Below are positions 8,796 to 57,329 of a stretch of 64,000 nt of DNA, piece after piece. The notes under the pieces are model-generated. The model saw only the letters and a list, made by a program, of their open reading frames with translations, did no database searches and was not told the origin of the DNA. The stretch's first letter is position 1. The number at the start of each line of letters is the position of its first letter. The stretch lies in the NCBI RefSeq assembly GCF_003334385.1, contig NZ_QOWN01000025.1. One strand, given 5' to 3'. The position numbers and the translations under genes are program-made. This stretch comes from Escherichia coli. Its GTDB lineage: Bacteria > Pseudomonadota > Gammaproteobacteria > Enterobacterales > Enterobacteriaceae.

Positions 8796-8809
8796 AAGAC
8801 AGATTACCT

Positions 8810-51257: not shown

Positions 51258-51290
51258 TTCCTCCCTGCATTTGTGGGGAGGATTTCGTCT
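51258..51290 (+). terminator. candidate terminator after ucpA
   Basis: CCTCCC-TGCATTTGTG-GGGAGG hairpin followed by ATTTCGTCTT. Confidence 0.35.
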
Positions 51291-51549: not shown

Positions 51550-52566
51550 ATGGCCGTTAACTTACTGAAAAAGAACTCACTCGCGCTGGTCGCTTCTCTG
51601 CTGCTGGCGGGCCATGTACAGGCAACGGAACTGCTGAACAGTTCTTATGACGTCTCCCGCGAGCTGTTTGCCGCCCTGAATCCGCCGTTTGAGCAACAAT
51701 GGGCAAAAGATAACGGCGGCGACAAACTGACGATAAAACAATCTCATGCCGGGTCATCAAAACAGGCGCTGGCGATTTTACAGGGCTTAAAAGCCGACGT
51801 TGTCACTTATAACCAGGTGACCGACGTACAAATCCTGCACGATAAAGGCAAGCTGATCCCGGCCGACTGGCAGTCGCGCCTGCCGAATAATAGCTCGCCG
51901 TTCTACTCCACCATGGGCTTCCTGGTGCGTAAGGGTAACCCGAAGAATATCCACGATTGGAACGACCTGGTGCGCTCCGACGTGAAGCTGATTTTCCCGA
52001 ACCCGAAAACGTCGGGTAACGCGCGTTATACCTATCTGGCGGCATGGGGCGCAGCGGATAAAGCTGACGGTGGTGACAAAGGCAAAACCGAACAGTTTAT
52101 GACCCAGTTCCTGAAAAACGTTGAAGTGTTCGATACTGGCGGTCGTGGCGCGACCACCACTTTTGCCGAGCGCGGCCTGGGCGATGTGCTGATTAGCTTC
52201 GAATCGGAAGTGAACAACATCCGTAAACAGTATGAAGCGCAGGGCTTTGAAGTGGTGATTCCGAAAACCAACATTCTGGCGGAATTCCCGGTGGCGTGGG
52301 TTGATAAAAACGTGCAGGCCAACGGTACGGAAAAAGCCGCCAAAGCCTATCTGAACTGGCTCTATAGCCCGCAGGCGCAAACCATCATCACCGACTATTA
52401 CTACCGCGTGAATAACCCGGAGGTGATGGACAAACTGAAAGACAAATTCCCGCAGACCGAGCTGTTCCGCGTGGAAGACAAATTTGGCTCCTGGCCGGAA
52501 GTGATGAAAACCCACTTCACCAGCGGCGGCGAGTTAGACAAGCTGTTAGCGGCGGGGCGTAACTGA
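51550..52566 (+). CDS. cysP: thiosulfate/sulfate ABC transporter periplasmic binding protein
   Basis: 338 aa with signal peptide. Confidence 0.9.
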
Positions 52567-53399
52567 TGTTTGCTGTCTCCTCCAGACGCGTGCTGCCGGG
52601 CTTTACCTTAAGCCTCGGCACCAGTCTGCTGTTTGTGTGCCTGATTTTGCTGCTGCCGCTCTCCGCGCTGGTGATGCAACTGGCCCAGATGAGCTGGGCG
52701 CAGTACTGGGAGGTGATCACCAACCCGCAGGTGGTCGCGGCCTACAAAGTAACGCTGCTGTCGGCGTTTGTGGCATCGATTTTTAACGGCGTTTTCGGTC
52801 TGCTGATGGCGTGGATCCTAACCCGCTATCGCTTCCCAGGCCGCACGCTGCTTGATGCGCTGATGGATTTACCCTTTGCGCTGCCAACGGCTGTCGCCGG
52901 TTTAACGCTGGCCTCGCTCTTTTCCGTAAACGGTTTTTACGGTGAATGGCTGGCGAAGTTTGATATCAAAGTCACCTATACATGGCTGGGGATTGCGGTG
53001 GCTATGGCCTTTACCAGCATTCCGTTTGTGGTGCGTACCGTGCAGCCGGTGCTGGAAGAGTTAGGCCCGGAATATGAAGAAGCGGCGGAAACGCTTGGTG
53101 CAACGCGCTGGCAGAGTTTCTGCAAAGTGGTGCTGCCGGAGCTTTCTCCGGCGCTGGTGGCGGGCGTGGCGCTGTCGTTTACCCGTAGTCTTGGTGAATT
53201 TGGCGCGGTGATTTTTATCGCCGGAAATATCGCGTGGAAGACGGAAGTGACGTCGCTGATGATTTTTGTGCGCTTACAGGAGTTTGATTACCCGGCAGCG
53301 AGCGCGATTGCTTCGGTGATCCTCGCGGCATCTCTGCTGCTGCTGTTCTCAATTAACACTCTGCAAAGTCGCTTTGGTCGGCGTGTGGTAGGTCATTAA
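52566..53399 (+). CDS. cysU: sulfate/thiosulfate ABC transporter permease
   Basis: 277 aa; start overlaps the cysP stop. Confidence 0.9.
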   Translation: MFAVSSRRVLPGFTLSLGTSLLFVCLILLLPLSALVMQLAQMSWAQYWEVITNPQVVAAYKVTLLSAFVASIFNGVFGLLMAWILTRYRFPGRTLLDALMDLPFALPTAVAGLTLASLFSVNGFYGEWLAKFDIKVTYTWLGIAVAMAFTSIPFVVRTVQPVLEELGPEYEEAAETLGATRWQSFCKVVLPELSPALVAGVALSFTRSLGEFGAVIFIAGNIAWKTEVTSLMIFVRLQEFDYPAASAIASVILAASLLLLFSINTLQSRFGRRVVGH

Positions 53400-54274
53400 T
53401 GGCGGAAGTTACCCAATTGAAGCGTTATGACGCGCGCCCGATTAACTGGGGCAAATGGTTTCTGATTGGCATCGGGATGCTGGTTTCGGCGTTCATCCTG
53501 CTGGTGCCGATGATTTACATCTTCGTGCAGGCATTCAGCAAGGGGCTGATGCCGGTTTTACAGAATCTGGCCGATCCGGACATGCTGCACGCCATCTGGC
53601 TGACGGTGATGATCGCGCTGATTGCCGTACCGGTAAACCTGGTGTTCGGCATTCTGCTGGCCTGGCTGGTGACGCGCTTTAACTTCCCTGGACGCCAGTT
53701 ACTGCTGACGCTACTGGACATTCCGTTTGCCGTATCGCCGGTGGTTGCCGGTCTGGTGTATTTGCTGTTCTACGGCTCTAACGGCCCGCTCGGCGGTTGG
53801 CTCGACGAGCATAACCTGCAAATTATGTTCTCCTGGCCGGGAATGGTGCTGGTCACCATCTTCGTGACGTGTCCGTTTGTGGTGCGCGAACTGGTGCCGG
53901 TGATGTTAAGCCAGGGCAGCCAGGAAGACGAAGCGGCGATTTTGCTTGGCGCGTCCGGCTGGCAGATGTTCCGTCGCGTCACATTACCGAACATCCGCTG
54001 GGCGCTGCTTTATGGCGTGGTGTTGACCAACGCCCGCGCAATTGGCGAGTTTGGCGCGGTGTCGGTGGTTTCCGGCTCGATTCGCGGCGAAACCCTGTCG
54101 CTGCCGTTACAGATTGAATTGCTGGAGCAGGACTACAACACCGTCGGCTCCTTTACCGCTGCGGCGCTGTTAACGCTGATGGCGATTATCACCCTGTTTT
54201 TAAAAAGTATGTTGCAGTGGCGCCTGGAGAATCAGGAAAAACGCGCACAGCAGGAGGAACATCATGAGCATTGA
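53399..54274 (+). CDS. cysW: sulfate/thiosulfate ABC transporter permease
   Basis: 291 aa; start overlaps the cysU stop. Confidence 0.9.
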
Positions 54275-55361
54275 GATTGCCAATATTAAGAAGTCGTTTG
54301 GTCGCACCCAGGTGCTGAACGATATCTCACTGGATATTCCTTCAGGTCAGATGGTCGCGTTGCTGGGGCCGTCCGGTTCCGGGAAAACCACGCTGCTGCG
54401 CATTATCGCCGGGCTGGAGCATCAAACCAGCGGGCATATTCGCTTCCACGGCACCGACGTGAGCCGCCTGCACGCACGTGATCGTAAAGTCGGTTTCGTG
54501 TTCCAGCATTACGCGCTGTTCCGCCATATGACGGTGTTCGACAATATCGCTTTTGGCCTGACGGTGCTGCCGCGTCGCGAGCGCCCGAATGCCGCAGCCA
54601 TCAAAGCGAAAGTGACAAAATTGCTGGAAATGGTCCAGCTTGCCCATCTGGCGGATCGTTATCCGGCGCAGCTTTCCGGCGGCCAGAAACAGCGCGTGGC
54701 GCTGGCGCGCGCGCTGGCTGTGGAACCGCAAATTCTGCTGCTTGATGAACCGTTTGGCGCGCTGGATGCGCAGGTGCGTAAAGAGCTGCGTCGCTGGCTG
54801 CGTCAACTCCATGAAGAACTAAAATTCACCAGCGTTTTTGTGACCCACGATCAGGAAGAAGCGACCGAAGTAGCTGATCGTGTAGTTGTGATGAGCCAGG
54901 GCAATATTGAACAGGCTGACGCGCCGGATCAGGTATGGCGCGAACCGGCGACCCGTTTTGTGCTCGAATTTATGGGCGAAGTGAACCGCCTGCAGGGAAC
55001 CATTCGCGGCGGGCAGTTCCATGTTGGCGCGCATCGCTGGCCGCTGGGCTACACACCTGCGTATCAGGGGCCGGTGGATCTCTTCCTGCGCCCTTGGGAA
55101 GTGGATATCAGCCGCCGTACCAGCCTCGATTCGCCGCTGCCGGTACAGGTACTGGAAGCCAGCCCGAAAGGTCACTACACCCAATTAGTGGTGCAGCCGC
55201 TGGGGTGGTACAACGAACCGCTGACGGTCGTGATGCATGGCGACGATGCCCCGCAGCGTGGCGAGCGTTTATTCGTTGGTCTGCAACATGCGCGGCTGTA
55301 TAACGGCGACGAGCGTATCGAAACCCGCGATGAGGAACTTGCTCTCGCACAAAGCGCCTGA
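54264..55361 (+). CDS. cysA: sulfate/thiosulfate ABC transporter ATP-binding protein
   Basis: 365 aa; Walker [10 protein letters not shown], signature LSGGQKQR; 11-nt overlap with cysW. Confidence 0.9.
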
Positions 55362-55382
55362 TAGGTTGAGTGAATGTTAAAC

Positions 55383-55414
55383 GCCCGGAGGCGCTTCCCG
55401 CGATCCGGGCTTTT
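55383..55414 (+). terminator. terminator-like hairpin between cysA and cysM
   Basis: GCCCGGA-GGCGCTTCCCGCGA-TCCGGGC followed by TTTTT, 22 nt after the cysA stop. Confidence 0.45.
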
Positions 55415-55431
55415 TAATGGCAAGGTTTGTA

Positions 55432-55472
55432 ACCTGTAGACCTGATAAGACGCGCAAGCGTCGCATCAGGCA
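55432..55472. repeat. REP element inside the cysA-cysM spacer
   Basis: GACCTGATAAGACGCGCAAGCGTCGCATCAGGC. Confidence 0.6.
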
Positions 55473-55494
55473 ACACCACGTATGGATAGAGATC

Positions 55495-56406
55495 GTGAGT
55501 ACATTAGAACAAACAATAGGCAATACGCCTCTGGTGAAGTTGCAGCGAATGGGGCCGGATAACGGCAGTGAAGTGTGGTTAAAACTGGAAGGCAATAACC
55601 CGGCAGGTTCGGTGAAAGATCGTGCGGCACTTTCGATGATCGTCGAGGCGGAAAAGCGCGGGGAAATTAAACCGGGTGATGTCTTAATCGAAGCCACCAG
55701 TGGTAACACCGGCATTGCGCTGGCAATGATTGCCGCGCTGAAAGGCTATCGCATGAAATTGCTGATGCCCGACAACATGAGCCAGGAACGCCGTGCGGCG
55801 ATGCGTGCTTATGGTGCGGAACTGATTCTTGTCACCAAAGAGCAGGGCATGGAAGGTGCGCGCGATCTGGCGCTGGAGATGGCGAATCGTGGCGAAGGAA
55901 AGCTGCTCGATCAGTTCAATAATCCCGATAACCCTTATGCGCATTACACCACCACTGGGCCGGAAATCTGGCAGCAAACCGGCGGGCGCATCACTCATTT
56001 TGTCTCCAGCATGGGGACGACCGGCACTATCACCGGCGTCTCACGCTTTATGCGCGAACAATCCAAACCGGTGACCATTGTCGGCCTGCAACCGGAAGAG
56101 GGCAGCAGCATTCCCGGCATTCGCCGCTGGCCTACGGAATATCTGCCGGGGATTTTCAACGCTTCTCTGGTGGATGAGGTGCTGGATATTCATCAGCGCG
56201 ATGCGGAAAACACCATGCGCGAACTGGCGGTGCGGGAAGGAATATTCTGTGGCGTCAGCTCCGGCGGCGCGGTTGCCGGAGCACTGCGGGTGGCAAAAGC
56301 TAACCCTGACGCGGTGGTGGTGGCGATCATCTGCGATCGTGGCGATCGCTACCTTTCTACCGGGGTGTTTGGGGAAGAGCATTTTAGCCAGGGGGCGGGG
56401 ATTTAA
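55495..56406 (+). CDS. cysM: cysteine synthase B
   Basis: ORF 55417..56406 spans the REP; GTG at 55495 gives (M)STLEQTIGNTPLVKL (303 aa), PLP-dependent. Confidence 0.85.
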   Translation: MSTLEQTIGNTPLVKLQRMGPDNGSEVWLKLEGNNPAGSVKDRAALSMIVEAEKRGEIKPGDVLIEATSGNTGIALAMIAALKGYRMKLLMPDNMSQERRAAMRAYGAELILVTKEQGMEGARDLALEMANRGEGKLLDQFNNPDNPYAHYTTTGPEIWQQTGGRITHFVSSMGTTGTITGVSRFMREQSKPVTIVGLQPEEGSSIPGIRRWPTEYLPGIFNASLVDEVLDIHQRDAENTMRELAVREGIFCGVSSGGAVAGALRVAKANPDAVVVAIICDRGDRYLSTGVFGEEHFSQGAGI

Positions 56407-56428
56407 GGATTAATAGCATCGGAGACTG

Positions 56429-56543
<115 letters not shown>

Positions 56544-56594
56544 ATAAACAAAGCGCACTTTTTTAACAGTTGTTGCTGCCGACAAATGCAGTAT

Positions 56595-57329
56595 TTAATT
56601 TTCGTGAGGAAACGCCGTAAGGTCATCAATCATTTTTTGAAGTATTGGTGAGTCCTGACCGTCACCCCATTGAAGAATTTTTGCGGTAAGCTGATGACGC
56701 GCTAGTGCATTGAGTCCCATCTTTTTAAGTTTATGGGAGATTTTACCCATGACTTTAATCTGACCGAATGCAGTTGCGTAGGTAATCATATTGCTCTGGA
56801 TAGTGCTCATTTCATCGACTAGTAATTGCGCACGAACATCCTCTTCAAGAATACTGTCCATAGCGATGTATTTCATACCCCACATAGTTTCAATTAACAT
56901 TTGAGGGAAATCAGCACAGTCCAGATCCGGCTCTTTACGGAGGCTATTTTCAAGAACGTTTAGAGCATCAGCACCTTCATCGCTGCCAAAAGGAGATTCT
57001 TCATCCCAGCAACACATATAAAGTGGATCAGTAAAATGGCACTGGAAGTTTGGGTGTGACGTTTTAACATGTAACCCAATTTCTTCATCATCAAAATAGT
57101 AGCGATCCATGAAGTTAAACTTTGGATCTTCTTGATAGCCTTTCTTCATTTTTGCGGCAATCAATTTACTGGCTTCTTTCAGACACTGTTCTTCATTATC
57201 GAACTCTTTTGTCTGGAATTTACCAATACTACCTACCTTGCCATAGTTGACAGCTAAACTATCCCCTTCGTAATCTATCCACCAAAATTTATTCGATTTT
57301 TCATCGTGATAAATAAAGCGTTTTTTCAT
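56595..57329 (-). CDS. yfeS: WGR-domain protein YfeS
   Basis: 244 aa; MKKRFIYHDEKSNKFWWIDYEGDSLAVNYGKVGS resembles a WGR domain. Confidence 0.8.
   Translation of the reverse strand: MKKRFIYHDEKSNKFWWIDYEGDSLAVNYGKVGSIGKFQTKEFDNEEQCLKEASKLIAAKMKKGYQEDPKFNFMDRYYFDDEEIGLHVKTSHPNFQCHFTDPLYMCCWDEESPFGSDEGADALNVLENSLRKEPDLDCADFPQMLIETMWGMKYIAMDSILEEDVRAQLLVDEMSTIQSNMITYATAFGQIKVMGKISHKLKKMGLNALARHQLTAKILQWGDGQDSPILQKMIDDLTAFPHEN

Follow-up and report, generated by a model that had tools for sequence, protein, structure and literature searches.

A conserved terminator-like hairpin between cysA and cysM: a putative leaky intrinsic terminator inside the cysPUWAM operon of Escherichia coli and its relatives

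In the 64,000-nt stretch of Escherichia coli DNA analysed here, referred to as the window, the cysPUWAM operon is located on the + strand. Based on the list of open reading frames, it is composed of cysP (51550–52566), cysU (52566–53399), cysW (53399–54274), cysA (54264–55361) and cysM (55495–56406), the latter encoding cysteine synthase B (303 aa); cysA and cysM are annotated as such in E. coli genomes, cysA being b2422 in MG1655. The successive genes from cysP to cysA overlap by 1 to 11 nt, and cysM alone is set off, by a spacer of 133 nt. This spacer corresponds to positions 2539584–2539716 (minus strand) of the MG1655 chromosome. K-12-derived strains are 100% identical to a 261-nt query spanning the junction, with flanks annotated as cysA and cysM in E. 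coli genomes. The cysA gene ends in tandem stop codons, TGA at 55359–55361 followed by an in-frame TAG at 55362–55364. A TAG opens the spacer in most Enterobacteriaceae loci as well, so that the second cysA stop is conserved there.

Two stem-loops are found in the spacer. The first one is a GC-rich hairpin of 28 nt (GCCCGGAGGCGCTTCCCGCGATCCGGGC; + strand, 55383–55410), which starts 21 nt past the cysA stop. According to the predicted fold, it is built from a 7-bp outer stem, GCCCGGA (55383–55389) pairing with TCCGGGC (55404–55410), and a 3-bp inner helix, CGC (55392–55394) pairing with GCG (55400–55402), with a small internal loop between the two helices and TTCCC as the terminal loop. The predicted free energy is −17.7 kcal/mol (z = −2.8 versus shuffled sequences). 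Directly abutting the stem is a U tract, TTTTT followed by AAT, at 55411–55415 of the + strand, which would be the expected site of transcript release. A sequence-only reading of the window had already described a GC-rich stem with a T run, starting 22 nt after the cysA stop and ending at 55414; both elements are confirmed, with the distance to the stop amended as given above and the end of the feature moved to 55415. The segment 55383–55415 thus has the sequence form of an intrinsic terminator, that is, a stable GC-rich stem-loop and an adjoining U-rich tract. The tract (five U, then AAU) is shorter than the 7–9 nt of strong terminators and the stem is interrupted, hence the termination efficiency could be low. 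On the 5′ side, the fold of lowest energy has the A/U-rich flank GTTAAAC (55376–55382, + strand) paired to the U tract, which is a weak feature.

To gauge whether the hairpin and its T run exceed chance, a strict rule was applied to both strands of the 64-kb window, comprising a hairpin of no more than 32 nt, a folding energy of −12 kcal/mol or lower and at least four T among the first five bases of the tail. The rule returned 24 sites, with that behind cysA being the most stable of all. An earlier, permissive rule allowing hairpins of up to 45 nt had given 156 matches in the window and was passed by 20% of shuffled sequences; it was too unspecific and was superseded by the strict one. A consensus terminator scan did not report the cysA hairpin, apparently because in that scan the loop is capped at 8 nt and the stem is interrupted. 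Among the 24 strict sites is the hairpin after ucpA (51259–51282, followed by TTTCGTCTTG), which separates ucpA from the cysP promoter region. A primary 3′ end has been mapped at MG1655 position 2543792 (Adams 2021, PMC7815308, supplementary file 1). Upon coordinate conversion, this end falls on position 51286 of the window, 4 nt downstream of the ucpA hairpin, which indicates that the strict rule catches at least one real terminator. Compared with the ucpA terminator, the cysA site has the more stable hairpin and the better U run. The hairpin between cysA and cysM is real and non-random.

The second stem-loop is a solitary Y-type REP element on the − strand, recognised by its consensus pattern and its stem-loop fold. 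Its presence had been noted before (55432–55472), and its core is now delimited to 55436–55471. Read on the − strand, the element is GCCTGATGCGACGCTTGCGCGTCTTATCAGGTCTAC, with one mismatch to the Y-type pattern GCCKGATGCGRCGYNNNNRCGYCTTATCMGGCCTAC, for which there were 0 matches in 100 shuffled sequences; the mRNA strand reads GTAG...GGC, with GTAG at 55436–55439. The REP hairpin has a predicted free energy of −20 kcal/mol (z = −5.5). It gives a partial match to the Rfam family naRNA4, which we take to be REP-derived, and the remaining Rfam matches in the spacer have E values above 2. Further REPs are located in the window at 8807, 20170, 33546, 33646 and 56441–56545. For the 261-nt query, which contains the REP, the median number of matching places in an E. 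coli genome is 5 (maximum 18), as against 1 for a query restricted to the hairpin; the additional places are attributed to the REP. As the cysA-cysM spacer holds one REP only, it does not constitute a BIME, and as this REP begins 74 nt past the cysA stop, it lies well beyond the distance of about 15 nt that characterises stop-proximal REPs.

The sequence-only reading had ascribed to the REP a stabilising role for the upstream cysPUWA message. This part of the proposal does not hold, given that the REP is situated downstream of the T run and is, hence, absent from any transcript ended at the terminator. It cannot protect such transcripts and could shield only the upstream part of read-through RNA. 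In the latter, by analogy with malE-malF, the REP stem-loop may slow 3′-to-5′ exonucleases after cleavage within cysM. Among the 80 loci surveyed (see below), an E. coli-type REP is present solely in the spacers of Escherichia and of Pseudocitrobacter faecalis; being confined to Escherichia-type spacers, the REP is outside the conserved arrangement.

The start codon of cysM is GTG at 55495, where it had been read before, and both sequence and annotation agree on this. Together with a weak Shine-Dalgarno-like sequence, GGATAGAG, it forms the translation start region at 55484–55497 (+ strand). By far the most Enterobacterales loci have GTG at the aligned position, with TTG in Erwinia persicina; nine loci in which the match to CysM begins at residue 2–4 have a GTG a few nucleotides upstream. 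It is unusual for a non-ATG start to be this well conserved, and it would be consistent with selection for a low output of CysM. A longer CysM starting from the ATG at 55417 (329-aa ORF) was considered and rejected, since many strains carry a 1-nt insertion in the spacer (134 nt) that breaks the frame and since the ATG is absent in other genera.

The position of the hairpin relative to cysM has consequences for the transcription of this gene. In about 30 taxa, only 17–30 nt separate the end of the hairpin from the cysM start. In Salmonella Typhimurium, the spacer amounts to 67 nt and contains a single hairpin followed by T6, with the GTG 19 nt past the stem; in Klebsiella pneumoniae, where two repeats are present, the hairpin is likewise located closely before cysM. 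A promoter is not expected to fit into such a gap on the 3′ side of the hairpin, and transcription of cysM in these taxa would, therefore, have to cross it. This would imply that termination at the hairpin is incomplete. In the window, a consensus scan for sigma-70-like promoters found none between 54000 and 57000.

Within the species E. coli, all 5426 complete genomes have the segment that contains the hairpin and the T run, which corresponds to nucleotides 1–64 of the spacer. It is 100% identical in 4659 of the 5428 matching records from these 5426 genomes, and the hairpin-only query matches at a median of 1 and a maximum of 2 places per genome; hence, unlike the REP, the hairpin is not a repeated element in E. 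coli. Those variants that were sampled have either T to A in the loop or G-U in place of the closing G-C pair, and none of them breaks the stem. In some E. coli variants and in E. albertii, a C to T change at the closing position of the stem extends the U tract to T6. The REP and the sequence immediately before it vary more among strains than the hairpin does. In E. coli AST205 (NZ_AP043614.1, 2599541–2599999), an IS200C element is inserted directly after the TTTTT, between the cysA hairpin and cysM. This natural variant could reveal the effect of separating cysM from the terminator.

For a comparison across the Enterobacterales, one genome per species was used, giving 80 loci that encode CysM relatives; cysA is directly upstream in 58 of them, and these loci plus the window made up the 59 spacers tested. 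A strict terminator-like site is present in 49 of the 59 spacers, compared with 1.5% of dinucleotide-preserving shuffles (about 0.9 spacers expected), where the sampled taxa share ancestry and the count, thus, overstates the number of independent events. With a looser rule, 52 of 59 spacers pass versus 20% of shuffles. Several of the ten spacers that fail the strict rule do have a strong GC hairpin, the T tail of which is somewhat weaker.

The hairpins themselves belong to at least 12 unrelated families of stem sequences. Stems of the type GCCCGG.../...CCGGGC are found in Escherichia, Citrobacter and Lelliottia, GCGGCC.../...GGCCGC in Cedecea, Shimwellia and Siccibacter, GGGCGGG.../...CCCGCCC in Pantoea and Mixta, AAGGCAACCC.../...GGGTTGCCTT in Serratia, GGTGGCC.../...GGCCACC in Yersinia, and TGCTCATCTC.../...GAGATGAGCA in Photorhabdus; further stem families occur in Tatumella, Acerihabitans, Erwinia, Proteus and Providencia. 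Position and form are kept while the sequence turns over, which argues for selection on the hairpin-plus-U structure.

In part of the Enterobacteriaceae, the spacer reveals where the hairpin may have come from. Enterobacter, Klebsiella, Pluralibacter and their relatives contain an inverted pair of palindromes of about 30 nt with CTAC/GTAG flanks, with the T run following the second one; in Citrobacter, Salmonella and Lelliottia, a single copy of the palindrome is followed by the same T run. The palindrome of about 30 nt is dispersed in those genera, with up to 14 sites in a single mislabelled Klebsiella chromosome, where no annotated feature was found for the copies among the matches listed. 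The E. coli hairpin lies at the same distance from the cysA stop as the Enterobacter/Klebsiella-type repeat, and the first 13 nt, GCCCGGNGGCGCT, are common to both. On these grounds, the E. coli hairpin most likely descends from this REP-type repeat, having diverged and become single-copy. In an alignment of 13 homologous hairpins, pairing holds in 100% of the cells for the six outer pairs, with one compensatory change from C-G to G-C and one change from G-C to G-U. This conservation of pairing would provide modest support for the hairpin structure, being partly explained by the constraints of the repeat family itself.

Pseudocitrobacter is a special case. In Pseudocitrobacter faecalis DSM 27453, the hairpin is identical to that of E. 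coli, the CysM protein is 97% identical, and two E. coli-type REPs follow; in a Pseudocitrobacter metagenome bin, an Enterobacter-type spacer arrangement is present instead. There are hints that this region of P. faecalis was acquired by recombination or transfer from Escherichia.

Published transcript data were consulted for the junction. The curated Term-seq list of Adams 2021 (PMC7815308), covering growth in LB at two densities and in M63 glucose, contains no 3′ end at MG1655 positions 2538xxx–2540xxx, a range in which both the spacer and cysM are included. For cysK, the same table holds only one internal end and one at the cysK terminator (2533432), with scores of about 1040 and 974, which are among the lowest seen. 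Since cysK is presumably far more highly expressed than cysA, these low scores point to a table that is insensitive for the regulon, and the absence of an end from the spacer is weak evidence. The TERMITe and RepRanger supplements have no entry for cysA or cysM, and full-text searches of the papers available returned no description of a cysA-cysM terminator.

Data on transcript levels are available from a study of an lsrR deletion in avian pathogenic E. coli (APEC). By RNA-seq, cysU, cysW and cysA were increased 3.4-, 6.9- and 9.9-fold, respectively, and cysM was not among the changed genes (PMC13393413, Table S3); another data set names cysW and cysA, but not cysM (PMC13393413, Table S4). These data weakly support an uncoupling of cysUWA and cysM mRNA at the junction, where it has to be considered that cysP was also unchanged in the first of the two sets and that the cysA-cysM junction is, thus, not cleanly isolated (PMC13393413).

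Termination events have also been reported elsewhere along the operon. On the operon strand, a strong Rho-dependent termination region is located 7 nt into cysP (MG1655 2543521; score 17.2, p = 5.6e-46; PMC7815308, supplementary file 2), which corresponds to about position 51557 of the window and suggests that, in the growth conditions used there, transcription was ended prematurely at the start of the operon. A weaker Rho region is found downstream of cysM on the operon strand, antisense to yfeS (MG1655 2538040, about 57038 in the window; PMC7815308). Two inverted REPs forming a BIME-like pair (56441–56475 and 56510–56545) fill the intergenic region between cysM and yfeS, which are convergent, and past the cysM stop at 56406 the consensus scan detected only a marginal terminator-like site (56574–56593). 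The Rho region antisense to yfeS agrees with the absence of any strong intrinsic terminator past cysM. It, thus, appears that the final stop of the operon is Rho-dependent and that its best intrinsic terminator is placed before cysM. In another cys operon, a Term-seq 3′ end maps inside cysI, 97 nt upstream of cysH (MG1655 2888409; PMC7815308, supplementary file 3); hence, cysI-cysH may also have an internal 3′ end before the last gene.

Taken together, the hairpin and U tract at 55383–55415 are, on balance, probably a leaky intrinsic (Rho-independent) terminator inside cysPUWAM; we infer termination, its partial efficiency and an effect on stoichiometry at cysA-cysM from sequence. The appearance of a genuine terminator, its conservation, the adjacent GTG start of cysM and the lack of a predicted sigma-70-like promoter all fit an attenuation of read-through and an unequal stoichiometry of transporter and CysM. 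An attenuation with this outcome had been proposed in the sequence-only reading and this part of it is supported, in favour of which are the terminator form, the presence in 49 of 59 spacers, the GTG start and the negative promoter scan; the stabilising role given to the REP has to be taken out of it.

Mechanistically, polymerases coming from the cysP promoter would release a fraction of their transcripts in the U tract, and the 3′ end of the released cysPUWA mRNA would be shielded by the terminator hairpin. The remaining polymerases would read through, whereby the REP and cysM are transcribed. The weak GTG start and the poor Shine-Dalgarno sequence would add to the attenuation, so that synthesis of CysM would be slower than that of the transporter proteins, and cysM mRNA would not need to track cysUWA in proportion. 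The REP is probably a later addition in Escherichia-type spacers that would be dispensable for the conserved mechanism. In the Enterobacteriaceae, the terminator has most likely been built from a REP-type repeat.

Among the alternatives, it is conceivable, if unlikely, that the hairpin (together with the REP in Escherichia) mainly acts as a barrier to 3′-to-5′ exonucleases and causes little termination; decay that sets in after a cut within cysM would stall at the stem-loops, so that the cysPUWA segment of the message outlives the cysM segment. In favour of this are the two stable stem-loops in series, of −17.7 and −20 kcal/mol, the stabilisation of upstream mRNA by REP stem-loops, as cited for malEF in PMC4705995, and the absence of a 3′ end in the U tract from the Term-seq list. 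However, a barrier needs no U run, yet a T run directly follows the stem in 49 of the 59 taxa, and most taxa are without an E. coli-type REP. The two readings are compatible, given that the 3′ end produced by a terminator is at the same time shielded by its hairpin.

A further explanation, which we hold to be improbable, sees both elements as neutral residents of the spacer, the one a decayed and the other a more recent REP copy, neither having been selected for an effect on expression. By its position, the E. coli hairpin is the homologue of a REP-type repeat that is dispersed in Klebsiella, Enterobacter and Salmonella, REPs commonly accumulate between genes, and REP hairpins persist for reasons unrelated to termination. 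Evidence against neutrality comes from the unrelated, non-REP hairpins which genera outside the Enterobacteriaceae have at the same place, each with a T run. Also, where the number of REP-type copies varies between one and two, the T run always comes after the last copy, and 4659 of 5428 E. coli records show no change in the hairpin segment, while the neighbouring REP varies.

Still less credence is given to an efficient terminator of a cysPUWA operon, with cysM constituting a separate unit under its own promoter. In PMC4705995, cysPUWA and cysM are listed as two distinct operons, for which no evidence is presented, and cysM mRNA did not track cysUWA in the lsrR deletion (PMC13393413); on the other side, cysPUWAM is treated as a single operon in both PMC3082872 and PMC13393413. 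The promoter scan of 54000–57000 speaks against a separate unit, as does the little space that is available: in E. coli, 79 nt separate the T run from the GTG, 36 of which are REP, and no more than 17–20 nt lie between hairpin and start codon in Salmonella, Citrobacter, Klebsiella and Enterobacter, so that a promoter would have to be situated upstream of the hairpin and would still need read-through.

The least probable of these explanations is a conditional terminator, with read-through being modulated by a competing RNA helix, by a protein or small RNA, or by a ribosome at the cysA stop, so that the ratio of CysM to transporter would vary with the conditions. In K-12, the last codons of cysA, AAGCGCCT (55352–55359), are perfectly complementary to AGGCGCTT (55389–55396) in the hairpin, this helix forms when the nascent RNA is folded without the 3′ arm, and the changes of cysM and cysUWA mRNA were uncoupled in one study (PMC13393413). 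On the other side, 7% of shuffled sequences pair equally well, the helix is weaker in E. albertii and in a second E. coli strain and absent in other genera, and apart from the REP no Rfam family matches the spacer. As a candidate antiterminator, the helix formed by 55352–55359 and 55389–55396 was rejected, being no better than shuffles and not conserved. It is similarly doubtful, and of little probability, that there is an order-wide conserved read-through switch which responds to sulfur source or to cysA translation and which, in the Enterobacteriaceae, has arisen from a domesticated REP. If this were true, the switch would set the ratio of CysM, which fixes thiosulfate, to the sulfate/thiosulfate transporter independently of the control exerted by CysB at the cysP promoter.

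A leaky terminator between cysA and cysM would not be without precedent. Partial terminators that make mRNA levels unequal inside operons are known, such as the rplL-rpoB attenuator, the rpsU-dnaG-rpoD terminator and those mapped by end-enriched RNA-seq. The cysA-cysM junction shares with them a GC-rich hairpin and a U run between co-directional genes, of which the downstream one would be without a promoter of its own and less expressed. In contrast to the examples named, the cysA hairpin is interrupted, its U run has only five residues, it is REP-derived in the Enterobacteriaceae, and it is known here from its sequence. The REP itself resembles the malE-malF stabiliser as a Y-type REP in an intra-operon spacer that forms a stable stem-loop in the transcript; it differs in that it is single instead of a BIME pair and located 3′ of a terminator-like hairpin, hence in read-through RNA only.

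Two other activities of REPs are to be mentioned in this context. Liang, Rudd and Deutscher reportedly found in 2015 that REPs within about 15 nt of a stop codon stall ribosomes and reduce the expression of the upstream gene. A stable palindrome also follows shortly after the cysA stop; however, the cysA-cysM REP lies 74 nt past it, and the stem-loop at 21 nt is a non-REP hairpin. Furthermore, Espeli et al. are said to have described in 2001 an attenuation of transcription that is associated with BIME/REP sequences and is Rho-dependent. The spacers of Klebsiella, Enterobacter and related bacteria likewise hold an inverted REP-type pair that is placed so as to reduce downstream transcription. 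Unlike in BIME attenuation, the last repeat of the spacer together with the T run is shaped like an intrinsic terminator, and in E. coli this place is taken by a unique hairpin and not by a BIME.

The cysA-cysM hairpin would be a new example of the well-known fine-tuning of operons, not a new kind of mechanism. The cysA-cysM spacer would also be a clear case of a REP-type repeat and a T run at a conserved terminator position. If the hairpin is a partial terminator, cysPUWAM would not be uniformly expressed, with cysM being throttled twice, by attenuation and by its GTG start. This would bear on the interpretation of transcriptomes in which cysM does not track cysUWA. For the same reason, a strong promoter placed before cysP may not raise cysM to an equal extent, as is to be considered for strains carrying PtrcF-cysPUWAM (PMC10963904).
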